64,000 nucleotides of DNA from an uncultured delta proteobacterium (lineage in GTDB: Bacteria > Desulfobacterota > Binatia > UBA9968). Below the pieces are notes generated by a model that was given only the letters and a program-made list of their open reading frames with translations, was not told the DNA's origin and made no database searches. Shown here piece after piece: positions 5,100 to 14,027 of the stretch (position 1 is its first letter; every line of letters begins with the position of its first letter). Both the position numbers and the translations under genes were made by a program. The stretch lies in NCBI GenBank assembly GCA_963727625.1, contig CAVSHR010000014.1, positions 1 through 64,000 of the forward strand, in the 5' to 3' direction.

Positions 5100-5668
5100 T
5101 CAACCGATAACGGGTTTTTTGACGAGGCTTTCGGTAACGAATGGGAAATTGTCCGCTAGCCAGGCGTCGATCCCGCCTTCGAGCGGGCGAACCCTGGTGA
5201 TTCCTTTGGGTCGTAGGAACAGCGCCACCCGGGCGCTGGTCGCTTCATTGGGTCACGAACAGTAGAGAACGACGTCGCGACCCGGGGAATCTCTCCGTGG
5301 CGCTCCTCGATCTCTTCCATGGGGATACGAAGCGCACCCGGGATCATCTGAGGGAACGCCTCGATATCCATGGGCTGGCGCAAGTCCACGATTGAAATAT
5401 TTTCTCCGGCGTTAATTTTGTCCATGAGTTCCTTCGGAGTGATGCGCGCAATCCGCAGCCGGCGAAGAAAGCGTCGGCGCTGAATGAACTTCCACAAAAC
5501 ATAAGCGGCCAAACCTCCCGCTAGGACCGCGACCAGCCAACCGCCCCAGCGCAGTGCGATCCGCTCGAGTTGTTCGCTGAATATCAAGCCCAAGCTCGTG
5601 ACGCTGACGACCCAGAACAATGCGCCCAGGGAAGCGAAGATCATGGCGACACCCATGAGCAGGCGTTT
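5100..5668 (-). pseudogene. Deleted/truncated copy of the DedA-rhodanese selenoprotein gene
   Basis: 5081-5643 aligns to 7502-8065; 5642-5661 matches 8793-8812; retains the in-frame TGA at 5253-5255; 1-nt indel near 5280. Confidence 0.85.
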
Positions 5669-7520: not shown

Positions 7521-8870
7521 TCAGAGAACAACGGGTTTCTTGACGAGGCTTTCGGTAACGAAAGGAAAATTGTACGCGAGCCAGGCGTCGATCCCGCCTT
7601 CGAGCGGGCGAACCCTGGTGATTCCTTTGGCTCGCAGCAGCAGCGCCACACGGGCGCTGGTCGCTTCGTTGGGTCACGAACAGTAGAGAACGACGTCGCG
7701 ATCCCGGGGAATCTCTGCGTGGCGCTCTTCGATCTCTTCCATAGCTATACGAAGCGCACCGGGGATCATCTGAGGGAACGCCTCGATATCCATGGTCTGG
7801 CGCAAGTCCACGATGGAGAGGTTTTCTCCGGCGGTGAGCTTGTCCATGAGTTCCTTCGGCGTGATGCGCGCAATCCGCAGCCGGCGAAGAAAGCGTTGGC
7901 GCTGGATGAACTTCCACAAAACATAAGCTGCCAAACCACCGGCTAGGACCGCGACCAGCCAACCGCCCCAGCGCAGTGCGATCCGCTCGAGTTGATCGCC
8001 GAGAATCAAGCCCAAGCTCGTGACGCTGACGACCCAGAACAATGCGCCCAGGGAAGCGAAGATCAGGAAACGTCGCACGGGCATGCGAAAGACTCCCGCT
8101 AGAGACGATGCCGCGGTATTCAGGCCGGGTATAAATTTGGCGACGAGCAAAGAACGGGCGCCATGCCGGATGAAAAGGTTCTCGGTCCGCCGCACGCAGG
8201 AGTCAGGTTCGAGGGAAATGCGGCACAGTAGCTTCAGTATGCGGCCGCCGCGGTAACGGCCTAGGAAGTACCAGAACAGGTCGGCCAAAATAACCGCGAC
8301 GAACGGCAACGCCAGCGCGAACGTCAAATTCATTTTACCGGCACGGGCCAGCGCGCCGGCCGCGATCAACAGAGGACCAGCCGGGATAGGCAGACCCAGC
8401 TGTTCGAGCAGCACCCAGCCGAACAAGACAGTGTAGCCGTGCCTGATCAGGAAATCGGCCGCTTGGTCCAGACTCAAGGAACTGGCCGCCTCGGGCAAAA
8501 CGCTCGCAAAAAAGAAACTAAGGACAGTCAATATCAGCGCCGCAAGCGCCGATTCGACATAGATCCGACGAGCCTGGGAGCGGAGCCGTTTCTCGGCGCC
8601 TTCGTCGCCGACCGGCTCTTCGGTGCCGTTCATCTTGCGCGCGCCGCGCGCGGCCAAAGCGACTCAGGTCTTTTTGCGCGCCTGGGAGAGAGCGAGAGTT
8701 CCTATCCAGAACGGCAGAAATAGCGCCGCATACCATCCGTGGCTTACATCTGCATGCGCGAAGACGACCGCCAGGACGACGCCCACGGCGAGCATGGCGA
8801 CACCCATGAGCAAACGCTTACGGATCTCCTTCGGCCCGATATTGGCGAGCTCTGCTTTTCCGCCGTTCAT
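7521..8870 (-). CDS. Membrane protein-DedA/VTT-rhodanese fusion with two in-frame UGA (probable selenocysteine) codons, 449 aa
   Basis: ORFs 8664-8870 and 7674-8657 and the tail to 7521 share one frame: QARKKT-U-VALAARG and VVLYCS-U-PNEATSARVA...RPLEGGIDAW; DedA motifs EQLGLPIP and AKFIPG. Confidence 0.85.
7641..7659 (-). promoter_or_regulatory. SECIS-like hairpin for UGA 7674-7676
   Basis: CAGCGCC-cgugu-GGCGCUG; loop starts 21 nt after the UGA; the stem is conserved in the copy at 5220-5238. Confidence 0.6.
8637..8651 (-). promoter_or_regulatory. SECIS-like hairpin for UGA 8664-8666
   Basis: GCGCGC-ggc-GCGCGC; loop starts with G, 18 nt after the UGA. Confidence 0.5.
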
Positions 8871-9087
8871 CGAAGGCCATCGGTACTTTTCTTCATTTTT
8901 TCGATCTCCGCTCAGGTTTCACCTTTAATAGCCGACATTCGCACATCCGGCTAGAGTGCGCTGCAGCCGCGGCAGAGATTTGCGGTTCGTGAACTGACTG
9001 CTAGTGTATGATGTGATTCTCGGTGAGTTCTAGAGATGAATTCCGACCGCGTTACTTTGCAGGGAAAAGCCCTGCCCGAGTCAGACG

Positions 9088-10959
9088 ATGTCCGCTGATC
9101 TGAGCAGTTTGGAAAAGGCCCGGCTGCTGGTCTCTACCAAGTTTTCCGAGGATGAACGCGCCCGCGGCTCGATGGAACGCGGCGCGGAAGCGGCTGAGCT
9201 CCTCGGTAAACTCGGAATGGATGCCGAGACCCGCGCAGTCGCCCTGCTGCTTCCCCTGGTCGACGAGGGCGCGCTCGATCCGGCGGCGATTGAGAAAGGC
9301 ATCGGCGTTCAAGTGGCCCGCCTGATCCGAGGGGCTCTTCGCATCACCAGCCTTAAAGATCTGCGCAAAACCGCAACCGAGACTCTCCAGGCCCATCGTC
9401 TGCGACAGATGCTTTTGACGATCGCGGAGGACCCACGGGTTGTGCTGGTGAGCCTGGCGCACCAGGTCTGTGCTCTGCGCGCCGCCGGGAACGCCGAGGA
9501 ACAGACGCGACGCACCGCCAGCCAGGAAGCCCTCGAGGTCTTCGCGCCGCTCGCAAACCGGTTGGGCGTGTGGCAGCTCAAACAGGAGCTCGAAGACCTC
9601 GCTTTTCGTTACTTGGAGCCGGACATCTATCGGCGCATCGCCGACGGCCTCGACCAGCGGCACGCGGACCGCGGGCGTTACATCGCGCAGGTGGTCGCGC
9701 GCTTGCGCGAAGAATTGAATCGCGCCGGTATCAGCGCCGAGATCAGCGGCCGCCCCAAGCATGTTTACAGCGTCTGGAACAAGATGCGCGAGAAGAGCCT
9801 CGACTTGAGCAAGGTCTTCGATGTCCTCGGTTTTCGCATCCTGGTAAACGACGTAAGCGGCTGTTACGCGGCGCTGGGCGTGGTGCACGGGCTGTGGGAG
9901 CCGATCCTGGATGCGTTCGACGACTACATCGCCAAACCCAAACCCAATGGCTACCAGTCGCTGCACTCGGCGGTGATCGGTCCGGAGGGAGTAACCATGG
10001 AGGTGCAAATCCGCACCTTCGACATGCACCGCCACGCCGACCTGGGGGTGGCGGCCCACTGGCAGTACAAGGAAGGTCTGCAGACGCGCATCGCATGGTC
10101 GCGCAGCTTTCTCGAAAGCGCGAAGAGCGCGACGGACGACTCCGATCTTATCGAGCGCTTCAAGCAAGCGGCTTTCCACGATCGGATCTACGTGCTCACG
10201 CCGCAGGGTCAGATCATAGATCTCCCGGCCGAGGCCACGCCGCTCGACTTCGCCTATGCGGTTCATACCCAGGTGGGGCACCGCTGCCGCGGCGCCAAGC
10301 TCGACGGGGTTATGGTCCCGCTTACGAAACCCCTCGCGAGCGGCCAACAAGTCGAGATCCTGACGGCGCGGGAGGGCCACCCGAGCCGCGACTGGCTGAA
10401 TCCTAGCCTGGGCTACCTCAAAACCGCCTCTGCGCGCGCGAAGGTCCGTCGCTGGCTCAAGCAGCTGGATCATGAAGCTCATGTCGCCCAGGGCCGGGCA
10501 GTCCTGGAGCGTGAGCACCGGCGCCTGGGTCTCGGCGAGATCAACATTGCCGAACTCGCCAAACGCTTCAAAATGCGGCGGCCCGAGGAGCTGCTGGCGG
10601 CGCTCGGGCGCGGCGACATCGGCACGGCGCGGCTCGGCCAGGCGCTCGGCGTCGAGTTGCCCGCTCAAGCGCCGAGCACGGCGGCATCATTGCCGGCGGC
10701 GCGGGGCAACTTGCTGGTGCACGGTGCCAGCGACGTTCTGACCAAGATTGCCGGTTGTTGCAGGCCCGTGCCGGGCGACCCCATCGGCGGCTACGTCACC
10801 GCCCAGGGAGGCGGCATCTCGATTCACCGCCTCGATTGTCCGAATCTGGAGCGGCTTGCGGCGCTACGACCTCGCAAGCTGATGCAGGTTGCGTGGGGAG
10901 AAACCAGCGCGCAGCGCCATACCGCGGAAGCAATGAAGCGAAAAGCGAATGCGGATTGA
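9088..10959 (+). CDS. relA: (p)ppGpp synthetase RelA, lacking the C-terminal ACT domain
   Basis: APLANRLG, ELEDLAF, GRPKHVYS, KPNGYQSLH, EVQIRT, TGS TPLDFAY, CCRPVPGD; the HD motif is degenerate. Confidence 0.9.
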   Translation: MSADLSSLEKARLLVSTKFSEDERARGSMERGAEAAELLGKLGMDAETRAVALLLPLVDEGALDPAAIEKGIGVQVARLIRGALRITSLKDLRKTATETLQAHRLRQMLLTIAEDPRVVLVSLAHQVCALRAAGNAEEQTRRTASQEALEVFAPLANRLGVWQLKQELEDLAFRYLEPDIYRRIADGLDQRHADRGRYIAQVVARLREELNRAGISAEISGRPKHVYSVWNKMREKSLDLSKVFDVLGFRILVNDVSGCYAALGVVHGLWEPILDAFDDYIAKPKPNGYQSLHSAVIGPEGVTMEVQIRTFDMHRHADLGVAAHWQYKEGLQTRIAWSRSFLESAKSATDDSDLIERFKQAAFHDRIYVLTPQGQIIDLPAEATPLDFAYAVHTQVGHRCRGAKLDGVMVPLTKPLASGQQVEILTAREGHPSRDWLNPSLGYLKTASARAKVRRWLKQLDHEAHVAQGRAVLEREHRRLGLGEINIAELAKRFKMRRPEELLAALGRGDIGTARLGQALGVELPAQAPSTAASLPAARGNLLVHGASDVLTKIAGCCRPVPGDPIGGYVTAQGGGISIHRLDCPNLERLAALRPRKLMQVAWGETSAQRHTAEAMKRKANAD

Positions 10960-12239: not shown

Positions 12240-13874
12240 TTAACGGCGCAGCACGCGTGCGAATCTGCCGGCGACGGCGTTGACCGCCTCGGGCAATTCT
12301 TCGATTCTAAAGAATCGGCAACCAAAGTAAAAGACGATCGCCGCCAAACCGATGGAGGCGATCACTTGGACGAGATGAACCCACAGGCCGCGCAGCGGCA
12401 GCACGCCGGCCAATTCACTGGTGAACCACGCTGTCGCTGCCATCGGCAAAGATGCGGCGCAAATGCGCAGGACGGTTTTCCCGAGCCTTCGACCTTCGAG
12501 CCGTTGCAGCCGGCGGCGCATCAAAAGCGCCAGCAGTAAGAAATTGACCAGCGCCACCGTGGAGGTAGAAAAAGCCAAGCCCACATGGCCGAAGGGGCCG
12601 ACCAGCAGGGTGTTCATGACGTAATTGACCGCGATGGAGCCCAGGCTGATCAGCATTGGCGTGCGCGCGTCGTTGAGCGCGTAAAACGCCGGCGAGAGCA
12701 CTTTGACAGCAGCGTAGCCGGCCAGGCCGATCGCATAGGCGGCCAAGGCGTTGGCCGTCTGCACCGTGTCGAAGCTGGTGAATTTGCCATGCTCGAACAC
12801 GAGCGCGACAATCGGCCGGCCCATGACCGCCAGCCCGATCGCCGACGGAATGCACAGGAGAAACACCAGCGCCAGGGAGTGGGTCAGCGTTTGGCGAAAT
12901 TCGTCATAATTGGGATTCGCCGTGCTGCGCGATAACGATGGCAGCGTCGCCGTGGCGATGGCGACGCCGAAGACGCCGATGGGAAATTGCATGAAACGAA
13001 AGGCGAAGCTCAGCCACGAAACCGGACCATTGAGTACGGTGCCGGTCGCCGGGTCGATGATTGCCGAGGCAAAGTTAGTATTTACAAAAACATTGATCTG
13101 CACGGCGGCGGTGCCGATGATCGCCGGTCCCATCAGCCGCAAGATCTGGCGCACACCGGGATCGCTCAAATTAAAATCCGGTCGATAACGAACGCCGCGG
13201 TGCCACAAGCTTGGCCACTGGACCGCCAGCTGCAAGCAGCCGCCGACCAGCGTGCCGTAAGCCATTCCGGCGATGGGCGTGAGTCCGATCATCGGACCGA
13301 AGGAAAAGCCGAGAAGCAGGCCGCCGAGGATCGAGCCGACGTTAAAAAATGCCGAGGCCAGGGCGGGCAGGCCGAAAACATTAAACGTATTCAACATGCC
13401 CATCGCCTGCGCCGCCAGCGCGATCAGCAACAGAAACGGGATCATGATTCGGGTCAAACTGATGGTCAGCTCCGCTTTGCCGGGAATGTCGAAAAATCCC
13501 GGCGCGAGCAGACGCACGATCGCCGGCGCATAGAGCCAAGCCAAGACGGCAATGACGCTGATGCTGATCATGATCAAGGTGGCAACGCGGTTCGACAGTC
13601 GAATCGCCGCCTCTTTGCCTTTGCTTTGCAGCGTTTGCGAAAACGTGGTGACGAAGGCGGCGGACAGCGCGCCTTCGGCAAACAGGTCACGGAGCAAATT
13701 GGGAATTCTAAACGCTGTCAGAAAGGCGTCGTACTGCAACCCGGCGCCGAAAAGCGCGGCGAATACCTGGTCGCGCACCAGGCCGAGGACCCGGCTGGCC
13801 ATGACGGCAAGACTGATAATCCCCGCGTTGCGCGCCACGTTTGCGCGCGCCTGTTGCGTCGTGTTTTCGTCCAT
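12240..13874 (-). CDS. murJ: Lipid II flippase MurJ
   Basis: SRVLGLVRD, AFRIPNLLRDLFAEGALSAAFV, QFPIGVFG. Confidence 0.95.
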   Translation of the reverse strand: MDENTTQQARANVARNAGIISLAVMASRVLGLVRDQVFAALFGAGLQYDAFLTAFRIPNLLRDLFAEGALSAAFVTTFSQTLQSKGKEAAIRLSNRVATLIMISISVIAVLAWLYAPAIVRLLAPGFFDIPGKAELTISLTRIMIPFLLLIALAAQAMGMLNTFNVFGLPALASAFFNVGSILGGLLLGFSFGPMIGLTPIAGMAYGTLVGGCLQLAVQWPSLWHRGVRYRPDFNLSDPGVRQILRLMGPAIIGTAAVQINVFVNTNFASAIIDPATGTVLNGPVSWLSFAFRFMQFPIGVFGVAIATATLPSLSRSTANPNYDEFRQTLTHSLALVFLLCIPSAIGLAVMGRPIVALVFEHGKFTSFDTVQTANALAAYAIGLAGYAAVKVLSPAFYALNDARTPMLISLGSIAVNYVMNTLLVGPFGHVGLAFSTSTVALVNFLLLALLMRRRLQRLEGRRLGKTVLRICAASLPMAATAWFTSELAGVLPLRGLWVHLVQVIASIGLAAIVFYFGCRFFRIEELPEAVNAVAGRFARVLRR

Positions 13875-14027
13875 AGCTTGCGGCGTCAGTGGATAACCCG
13901 TAGCACGAAAAACATTGGCCGTCGACGCGCACCCGGCTGCGAGATCGCTTTTGTCCTGGCCAGAGCCGCGAGGCTTTGTTAGAAGAATTGGGAGCAATAC
14001 TTATCGACAGTTCTTTTAGGAGGGATT

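Follow-up and report, generated by a model that had tools for sequence, protein, structure and literature searches.

A gene on the minus strand at positions 7521..8870 was analysed in a window of 64,000 nucleotides from an uncultured delta proteobacterium (GTDB lineage Bacteria; Desulfobacterota; Binatia; UBA9968), taken from assembly GCA_963727625.1, contig CAVSHR010000014.1, positions 1 to 64,000. What gene callers present here as two short genes is very probably one gene for a single 449-residue inner-membrane protein with two predicted selenocysteines (Sec). Three parts can be distinguished in this protein, an N-terminal membrane module (N-module), a DedA/VTT domain and, at the C-terminus, a rhodanese domain. 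Decoding of both internal UGA codons as Sec is predicted with high confidence, and a two-Sec protein of this composition, whose UGAs are read with the assistance of hairpins, is considered with good confidence to be the best explanation overall. Positions given below are window positions on the forward strand, and residues are counted in the read-through protein with TGA translated as U.

Translation of 7521-8870 (-) with TGA as U gives a single frame of 449 codons, as had been claimed in a first-pass annotation of the sequence. The frame starts with the ATG at 8870-8868, ends with a terminal TGA at 7521-7523 and includes two internal TGAs. The start methionine is common to the homologues (MNVGK... 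or MTVGK...). Under translation table 11 the same DNA yields an open reading frame (ORF) of 68 residues at 8664..8870, an ORF of 327 residues at 7674..8657 and an unlisted tail. UGA 1 (8664-8666, minus strand; Sec69) is found in the context QARKKT-U-VALAARG, and UGA 2 (7674-7676, minus strand; Sec399) in the context VVLYCS-U-PNEATSA. On the same strand, the N-module occupies residues 1-136 (8463..8870), the DedA/VTT domain residues 162-287 (8010..8387; Pfam PF09335, E 2.5e-15) and the rhodanese domain residues 337-432 (7575..7862; Pfam PF00581, E 6.9e-13). Because the Pfam rhodanese match crosses UGA 2, loss of the tail leaves this domain incomplete, in agreement with the first-pass annotation. 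The third TGA at 7521-7523 is a real stop, since the frame past it diverges within a few codons in 56 relatives and runs into stops at variable places. A third Sec at this codon was considered and rejected, because the downstream translation of these 56 relatives is not conserved.

The counterpart residues in homologues form the first line of evidence for Sec. Cysteine is the usual counterpart of Sec, and it predominates at both columns. For site 1, a profile built from eight N-terminal parts was searched against 1.84 billion representative proteins, giving 1324 proteins at E ≤ 1e-3, of which 348 reach E ≤ 1e-10. Among the best 150 of the 1324, 138 span the column, and the residue there is Cys in 135 of them, Gly in 2 and Asp in 1; five others end at ...KKT, cut at the TGA, and seven begin past the column. 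For site 2, residues 330-449 were used as the query, and the best 120 matches comprised 119 full-length DedA-rhodanese fusions together with the window's own truncated product. All 119 fusions carry Cys at this site, within the motif [LVF]-[YF]-C-x-C-P-N-E. The two correspondences stated in the first-pass annotation, the site 1 Cys of the upstream membrane family and YCxCPNE in DedA-rhodanese fusions, were thereby confirmed. In the best sequence match in the PDB, 6mxv, U399 lies gaplessly opposite the cysteine of the loop C-G-S-G-F-R-S; in the weaker match 3tp9, Cys397 is aligned instead, with a two-residue gap. Within the active-site loop C397-S-U399-P-N-E-A-T-S, Sec399 is here chosen as the putative catalytic residue and Cys397 as its neighbouring thiol. 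The prediction that standard gene callers would split and truncate the gene also proved right, as the best database hits end at ...LYCS in 120 of 120 cases and the 68-residue fragments end at ...KKT. In public annotation the downstream piece has been given at least four different start sites by gene callers.

Conservation of the two codons in relatives provides the second line of evidence. Eight of 60 other related genomes hold a full-length match at 80-91% identity, each with exactly two TGAs, and in a ninth genome (G018) the two halves are both present but fall in two frames. Metagenome contigs were scanned as well and contributed 80 loci, 81-91% identical. TGA occupies site 1 in 73/73 of those that cover it (the other 7 begin later) and site 2 in 68/68 (the other 12 end earlier); neither TAA, TAG nor a sense codon was seen at either site among the covering loci. 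Positions of true stops normally switch among TAA, TAG and TGA. UGA 1 is also TGA in loci L015-L022, L027 and L030. The fusion is retained in all 51 distinct full-length genes, and there are no frameshifts among them. Contigs from RNA libraries of relatives (three soil/rhizosphere libraries) run over the gene and bridge both sites, site 2 in X16 record 17 and X17 record 25 and site 1 in X16 records 23 and 24. They are a weak hint of transcription, as the libraries may contain DNA. The run shares are small (0.08-0.26) and the data are contigs only, so no conclusion on habitat or expression level is drawn.

More distant relatives hold the parts separately. Genomes G005, G031 and G026 (loci L024-L026) encode a 67%-identical DedA-rhodanese protein in which the second TGA is kept and the N-terminal part is absent; this statement stands on G031 and G026 independently of G005. 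Locus L030 of genome G034 encodes the N-module alone, in a 117-residue frame that is 44% identical, keeps TGA at the column of UGA 1 and can be aligned both before and after it. Two further matches were recorded. A 60-residue fragment at a contig edge (G032:C113:5-187) matches residues 63-123 with two TGAs, possibly representing a variant N-module in which a further codon is recoded. The other match (G029:C14:230125-231222) is paralogue-like and 60% identical over residues 84-444; it has four TGAs, one TAG and one TAA and may be a decayed copy.

The genome also encodes the machinery for Sec. The window belongs to contig C14 of an assembly of 6.6 Mb in 15 contigs, with a completeness of 98.45%, and the names borne by near-identical database proteins point to Candidatus Binatia as its lineage. 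The check for selA, selB, selC and selD suggested in the first-pass annotation returned selA, selB and selD at 527, 397.5 and 377 bits, each above its curated cut-off, as well as a tRNA-Sec. The three protein genes stand side by side at C5:715340-719466, and the tRNA-SeC, with anticodon tca, is present in one copy at C5:768830-768924 (ARAGORN). selD itself contains one in-frame TGA in the context A-A-G-U-A-A-K, as in Sec-type selD. Two further rhodanese frames with an in-frame TGA, placed differently in the loop, were noted in the same genome, G000:C9:51470-51772 (VVLY-U-ACPHH) and G000:C2:630507-630857 (YCAGPT-U-PLGKQ), and rhodanese matches with one TGA were also seen in many relatives. The genome seems to be rich in rhodanese-type selenoproteins.

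Bacterial insertion of Sec depends on SelB, which together with Sec-tRNA reads a hairpin past the UGA, the selenocysteine insertion sequence (SECIS). A SECIS-like hairpin was found after each internal UGA. Hairpin 1 (8637..8651, minus strand; GCGCGC-GGC-GCGCGC) begins 12 nt past UGA 1 and codes for A-R-G-A-R, and all six pairs of its stem are invariant in 40 distinct sequences. Hairpin 2 (7641..7659, minus strand; CAGCGCC-CGUGU-GGCGCUG) begins 14 nt past UGA 2, and its inner six pairs are kept in 26/26 distinct sequences with two G-U substitutions; the closing pair is broken in 3 of the 26, and a proposed outer helix is poorly kept. Compared with dinucleotide shuffles, hairpin 2 gave a z of -2.45 (5/200 as good) and the counterpart hairpin of L030 a z of -2.84 (4/200 as good). 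Short GC hairpins at similar distances are also found in selD and in the two further rhodanese TGA frames of the genome.

Synonymous variation was measured across the 51 distinct full-length genes. The third base is invariant in 31 of 155 conserved four-fold codon columns, and across the gene such invariance extends furthest at codons 74-82 (6 columns) and at codons 398-406 (5 columns), after which come 408-410. Within codons 398-410, 8 of 9 four-fold columns are frozen, the sole variable one being Arg407, which is in the loop. Permutation (20,000 rounds) produced a run of at least 5 at a frequency of 0.031 and at least 8 of 9 at a frequency of 0.0011. Both frozen blocks lie directly past the two TGAs, as two SECIS elements predict.

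Several observations on the RNA speak against the hairpins as SECIS elements. Hairpin 1 is no better than chance against dinucleotide shuffles (z +0.85, 159/200 as good). Because it falls on the conserved peptide A-A-R-G-A-R, its conservation is in part that of the protein. No covariation was seen in either stem among the 40 and 26 distinct sequences, in which the stems do not vary. A search of Rfam returned no SECIS family and one chance-level row, bacterial SECIS elements being poorly covered in that database.

The first predicted Sec falls in a protein family that has no name. Most homologues of the N-module are stand-alone proteins of 115-130 residues with two motifs, N-I-G-P-x-E-x-R-K-R before helix 1 and Q-A-x-x-x-T-[C/U]-V-x-L-A-A-R-G after helix 2. 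The module of the window protein has the features of this family, with both motifs, the third helix and U replacing C. An AlphaFold2 model of residues 1-136, obtained with a 42-row alignment, folds as one unit with a mean pLDDT of 95.1 and a pTM of 0.85. Three helices (13-40, 44-66 and 70-74) are followed in it by a beta-hairpin (77-86) and by a further, long helix (90-133); Sec69 is placed just before the short helix 70-74, at its N-terminal end. No family for the module was found in Pfam or NCBIfam. Foldseek gave no match of the model to the PDB at E ≤ 1e-3, and the top Z among 48,161 chains compared by VIA-align was 6.9, which is within the noise for helical proteins. The protein atlas offered unannotated clusters only, and the source names of 10 family members are 'hypothetical protein' or none. 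A similar theme is that of E. coli YgaP, in which a rhodanese is joined to a small two-helix membrane domain (PF11127) that begins with N-x-G...R...G and has a conserved Cys past helix 2. In YgaP the domain order is reversed, and the N-module has an extra third helix and the beta-hairpin. PF11127 gave no match to the N-module or to L030 at E ≤ 10 and none in the window's own genome.

Distribution of the module was followed with two further searches. When 300 genomes sampled from the phylum were searched with a profile, the N-module turned up in the window's own genome only. A 9-row alignment of the module led to 19 loci of stand-alone Cys homologues, in Acidobacteriota, Gemmatimonadota and others. 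Five of these 19 loci (L036, L038, L040, L043 and L045; contigs of Acidobacteriota metagenome-assembled genomes) place the homologue directly after genes for a FtsX/MacB-type permease and a HlyD-type adaptor; in L045, an OEP and a HlyD-like gene stand ahead of it. Longer fused Cys forms of the N-module were absent from the best 120 of the 138 hits, all 120 being the known truncated DedA pieces. Sec69 appears to replace the single conserved Cys of a widespread, unannotated membrane family of ~120 residues, which in this Binatia lineage would have been fused ahead of a DedA-rhodanese protein.

The remainder of the protein belongs to a known type of fusion. It has the order VTT then rhodanese, the loop C-x-[C/U]-PNE and the segment L-C-R-I-S-L-E-P-D-S-C that mark the DedA-rhodanese fusion family. 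The cysteine pair C216...C225 of this segment (8196..8225, minus strand; columns C80 and C89 of alignment A6) is invariant across the 63 aligned DedA-rhodanese proteins and absent from E. coli YghB. The best NCBIfam match of the rhodanese part is NF041203, rhodanese_LYCAU, described as 'rhodanese-related (seleno)protein', with 80.9 bits (77.2 bits on DNA), below the cut-off of 115; the L-Y-C-x-U loop motif of this family is present as V-L-Y-C-S-U-P-N-E. The DedA part is 32% identical to YghB and falls below the cut-offs of the UptA/DedA equivalogs in NCBIfam (NF052604, 68.6 versus 250; PRK10847, 55.6 versus 236). Glu39 and Asp51 are essential charged residues of DedA proteins of the undecaprenyl-phosphate flippase type. 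Arg130 and Arg136 have been described as likely phosphate binders of these flippases (PMC10127716). Compared with YghB, E39 is kept, D51 is replaced by G/P, R130 by K and R136 by N (S in most of the family). Since Asp51 and Arg136 are absent and Lys stands for Arg130, the DedA domain probably handles a different substrate than the undecaprenyl-phosphate flippase type. A DedA protein was reportedly tied to selenite resistance by Ledgham et al. in 2005.

A mechanism can be proposed from these parts. Translation would start at 8870, and the UGA at 8664-8666 would be read as Sec69 with the aid of the GC hairpin 12 nt downstream. The ribosome would continue through the DedA/VTT domain into the C-terminal rhodanese, read the UGA at 7674-7676 as Sec399 with the aid of the hairpin 14 nt downstream, and stop at 7521-7523. 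Sec399 would take the place of the catalytic cysteine of the rhodanese loop, with Cys397 as the partner thiol. Hydropathy and charge mark residues 1-19, 39-106, 201-267 and 323-449 as K/R-rich segments. If these segments are cytoplasmic, as their charge suggests, Sec69, Cys216/Cys225 and Cys397-x-Sec399 would all be on one face of the membrane. The five Cys/Sec residues could then form a short, cytoplasm-facing relay, by persulfide or selenosulfide, through which sulfur or selenium is passed to the DedA-type transport domain or taken from there. Such a relay between the rhodanese and the membrane part, coupled to the cargo of the diverged DedA domain, is proposed tentatively, at well short of even chances. 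The coupling of Se/S transfer to a membrane transporter, as suggested in the first-pass annotation, is plausible. A more specific version is rather unlikely; it holds that the N-module founds a new, widespread family whose single Cys/Sec is an acceptor or donor of sulfane sulfur or selenium at the membrane face, and that a built-in chalcogen relay, made up of this residue, the rhodanese Cys-x-Sec and the DedA Cys pair, loads or unloads a DedA-type transporter.

Several points weigh against this functional model. The topology is based on hydropathy and charge only. No conserved gene neighbours were found among the relatives, in which synteny does not extend beyond ~90 nt upstream, and at the remaining 14 of the 19 stand-alone loci the neighbours are unrelated, with no common theme. 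The parts can work apart, as relatives hold either the N-module alone or the DedA-rhodanese Sec protein alone.

The same occurrence of separate modules is compatible with an alternative in which both codons are Sec and no relay exists. The N-module would then be an extra anchor or an independent redox or metal-binding unit, and the rhodanese a redox sensor or regulator of DedA. This alternative is possible, although it too is held at less than an even chance. It gains from the stand-alone Cys homologues, which have no sulfur-related neighbours and in 5/19 loci follow MacB/FtsX-HlyD efflux genes, and from the link between rhodanese and DedA being termed 'unclear' in the literature (PMC10127716). 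Retention of the fusion in 51/51 distinct full-length genes is less readily explained in this way, as is the location of five conserved Cys/Sec in K/R-rich, probably cytoplasmic segments; these two points do not discriminate strongly between a relay and its absence.

The other alternatives concern the decoding itself. An improbable one holds that UGA 1 is a true stop and that only UGA 2 is Sec, so that a 68-residue two-helix peptide is made beside a DedA-rhodanese selenoprotein started by coupling, at TTG 8657 or ATG 8633. Gene callers give exactly such a split, but neither start codon is conserved: relatives have CTG or CTC in place of TTG 8657, while L021 has ATA in place of ATG 8633 and L030 lacks the latter. 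DedA-rhodanese Sec proteins without the N-module in relatives (L024-L026) fit a separate downstream gene, but the stand-alone L030 reaches its third helix only by read-through. The 68-residue product would be cut off ahead of the conserved motif and would also miss the beta-hairpin and helix 3 of this domain, which was modelled at pLDDT 95. Hairpin 1, being no better than shuffles, is also in favour of this alternative; set against it are the frozen synonymous sites directly past TGA 1 and the codon itself, for which TGA was seen in 73/73 loci and neither TAA nor TAG in any. In addition, the homologues with Cys at this column (135/138) continue as single ORFs of ~120 residues, and the codons right after UGA 1 vary synonymously (GTC/GTG/GTT, TTG/CTG/CTC). 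The lack of a conserved start after TGA 1, the four or more downstream starts chosen by gene callers, the single ORFs of the Cys forms, the synonymous change and the folding of the module as a unit together argue against a separately started DedA gene.

A broken gene, in which the TGAs would stem from nonsense mutation during decay or from faulty assembly, is hardly conceivable. A decayed partial copy does lie 2 kb away in the window (5100-5650), but both TGAs are found again in independent assemblies as well as in metagenome loci (73/73 for site 1, 68/68 for site 2), the protein is conserved on both sides of each TGA with 0 frameshifts in the 51 distinct genes, and RNA-library contigs of relatives bridge both sites, a weak point since DNA may be present. 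Equally negligible is a TGA that is an ordinary sense codon for Trp or Gly (codes 4 or 25), for which Gly at the site 1 column in 2/138 homologues could be cited, as the gene ends at a TGA past which relatives diverge at once, Cys predominates at both columns, the selA and selB frames are free of internal stops and the genome has a full Sec system.

Several features surround the two-Sec gene. Conservation of the flanks in relatives is limited to an upstream leader of ~95 nt (8871..8965, minus strand), and gene and leader therefore seem to travel together as one unit. The leader contains GGAG followed by an upstream ORF of nine codons (MKKSTDGLR), the TGA of which overlaps the main ATG (ATGA); its own ATG is ATT or ATC in several relatives. 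TAGCCG-17-TATTAA was considered as a promoter and is unsupported, as a scan of the leader with the sigma-70 consensus gave no match. A RelA/SpoT-type (p)ppGpp synthetase/hydrolase gene (9088-10959, plus strand) is divergent from the gene, and a MurJ lipid II flippase gene (12240-13997, minus strand) is nearby; neither is adjacent to the gene in relatives. The decayed second copy (window 5100-5650, minus strand) is ~95% identical to the last ~565 nt of the gene, including the TGA and hairpin 2. In this copy an internal deletion fuses ...KRLLMGVAM, from the start of the N-module, to ...IFASLG (about residue 262), and a 1-nt deletion just ahead of the rhodanese active site shifts the frame.

Parts of the protein resemble described systems. 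Cys-x-Sec rhodaneses have been catalogued as 'form 3' of rhodanese-like selenoproteins (NF041203, CxU) (PMC13188914, Table 1). Like form 3, the rhodanese of the window protein has L-Y-C-x-U, with Sec two residues past Cys in the active-site loop; unlike form 3, which has ~126 residues, it is the C-terminal part of a 449-residue membrane fusion with a second Sec elsewhere. DedA-rhodanese fusions, of which PA1209 of P. aeruginosa is one (PMC12893004), combine COG0586 DedA with PF00581 and bear the NCBI name 'DedA family protein/thiosulfate sulfurtransferase GlpE' (PMC10127716, PMC12893004). Residues 137-449 align with 62 of these fusions at 47-63% identity and share the C-x-C-PNE loop and the invariant Cys pair; the fusions have Cys where the window protein has Sec, and the N-module was present in 0/119 of those looked at. 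TsoB (NF045694) is a rhodanese/DsbD fusion-like selenoprotein with two Sec (PMC13188914, Table 1). It is similar in joining a rhodanese to a membrane redox module and in having two Sec, and differs in its motif UxxxxU and its partner domain; NF045694 was not among the 12 NCBIfam families matched at E ≤ 1.

Among the 119 selenoprotein families of Table 1 in PMC13188914, no DedA/VTT entry and nothing resembling the N-module was found, although the supplements of reviews might name more candidates. A full-text literature search returned no paper joining selenoprotein, DedA and rhodanese, nor Binatia with selenocysteine. Cys-x-Sec rhodaneses were thus already known, and what is new is the second Sec, the unannotated family that holds Sec69 and the three-part fusion.

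The finding adds a selenoprotein family that is not found in the current inventory (PMC13188914, Table 1, 119 families). It would be a rare case of a polytopic membrane protein with two Sec in two different domains and a hairpin after each. Hundreds of truncated pieces of the gene are present in public databases, and proteomes of soil Binatia are systematically mis-annotated at this locus. The replacement of Cys by Sec marks residue 69 and the second Cys of C-x-C as chemically critical in the ~120-residue membrane family and the DedA-rhodanese fusions, respectively, which provides precise targets for experiments. If the chalcogen relay is true, it would be the first mechanistic link of a DedA protein to sulfur or selenium trafficking, and possibly a device for selenium uptake or delivery that serves the cell's own Sec system.

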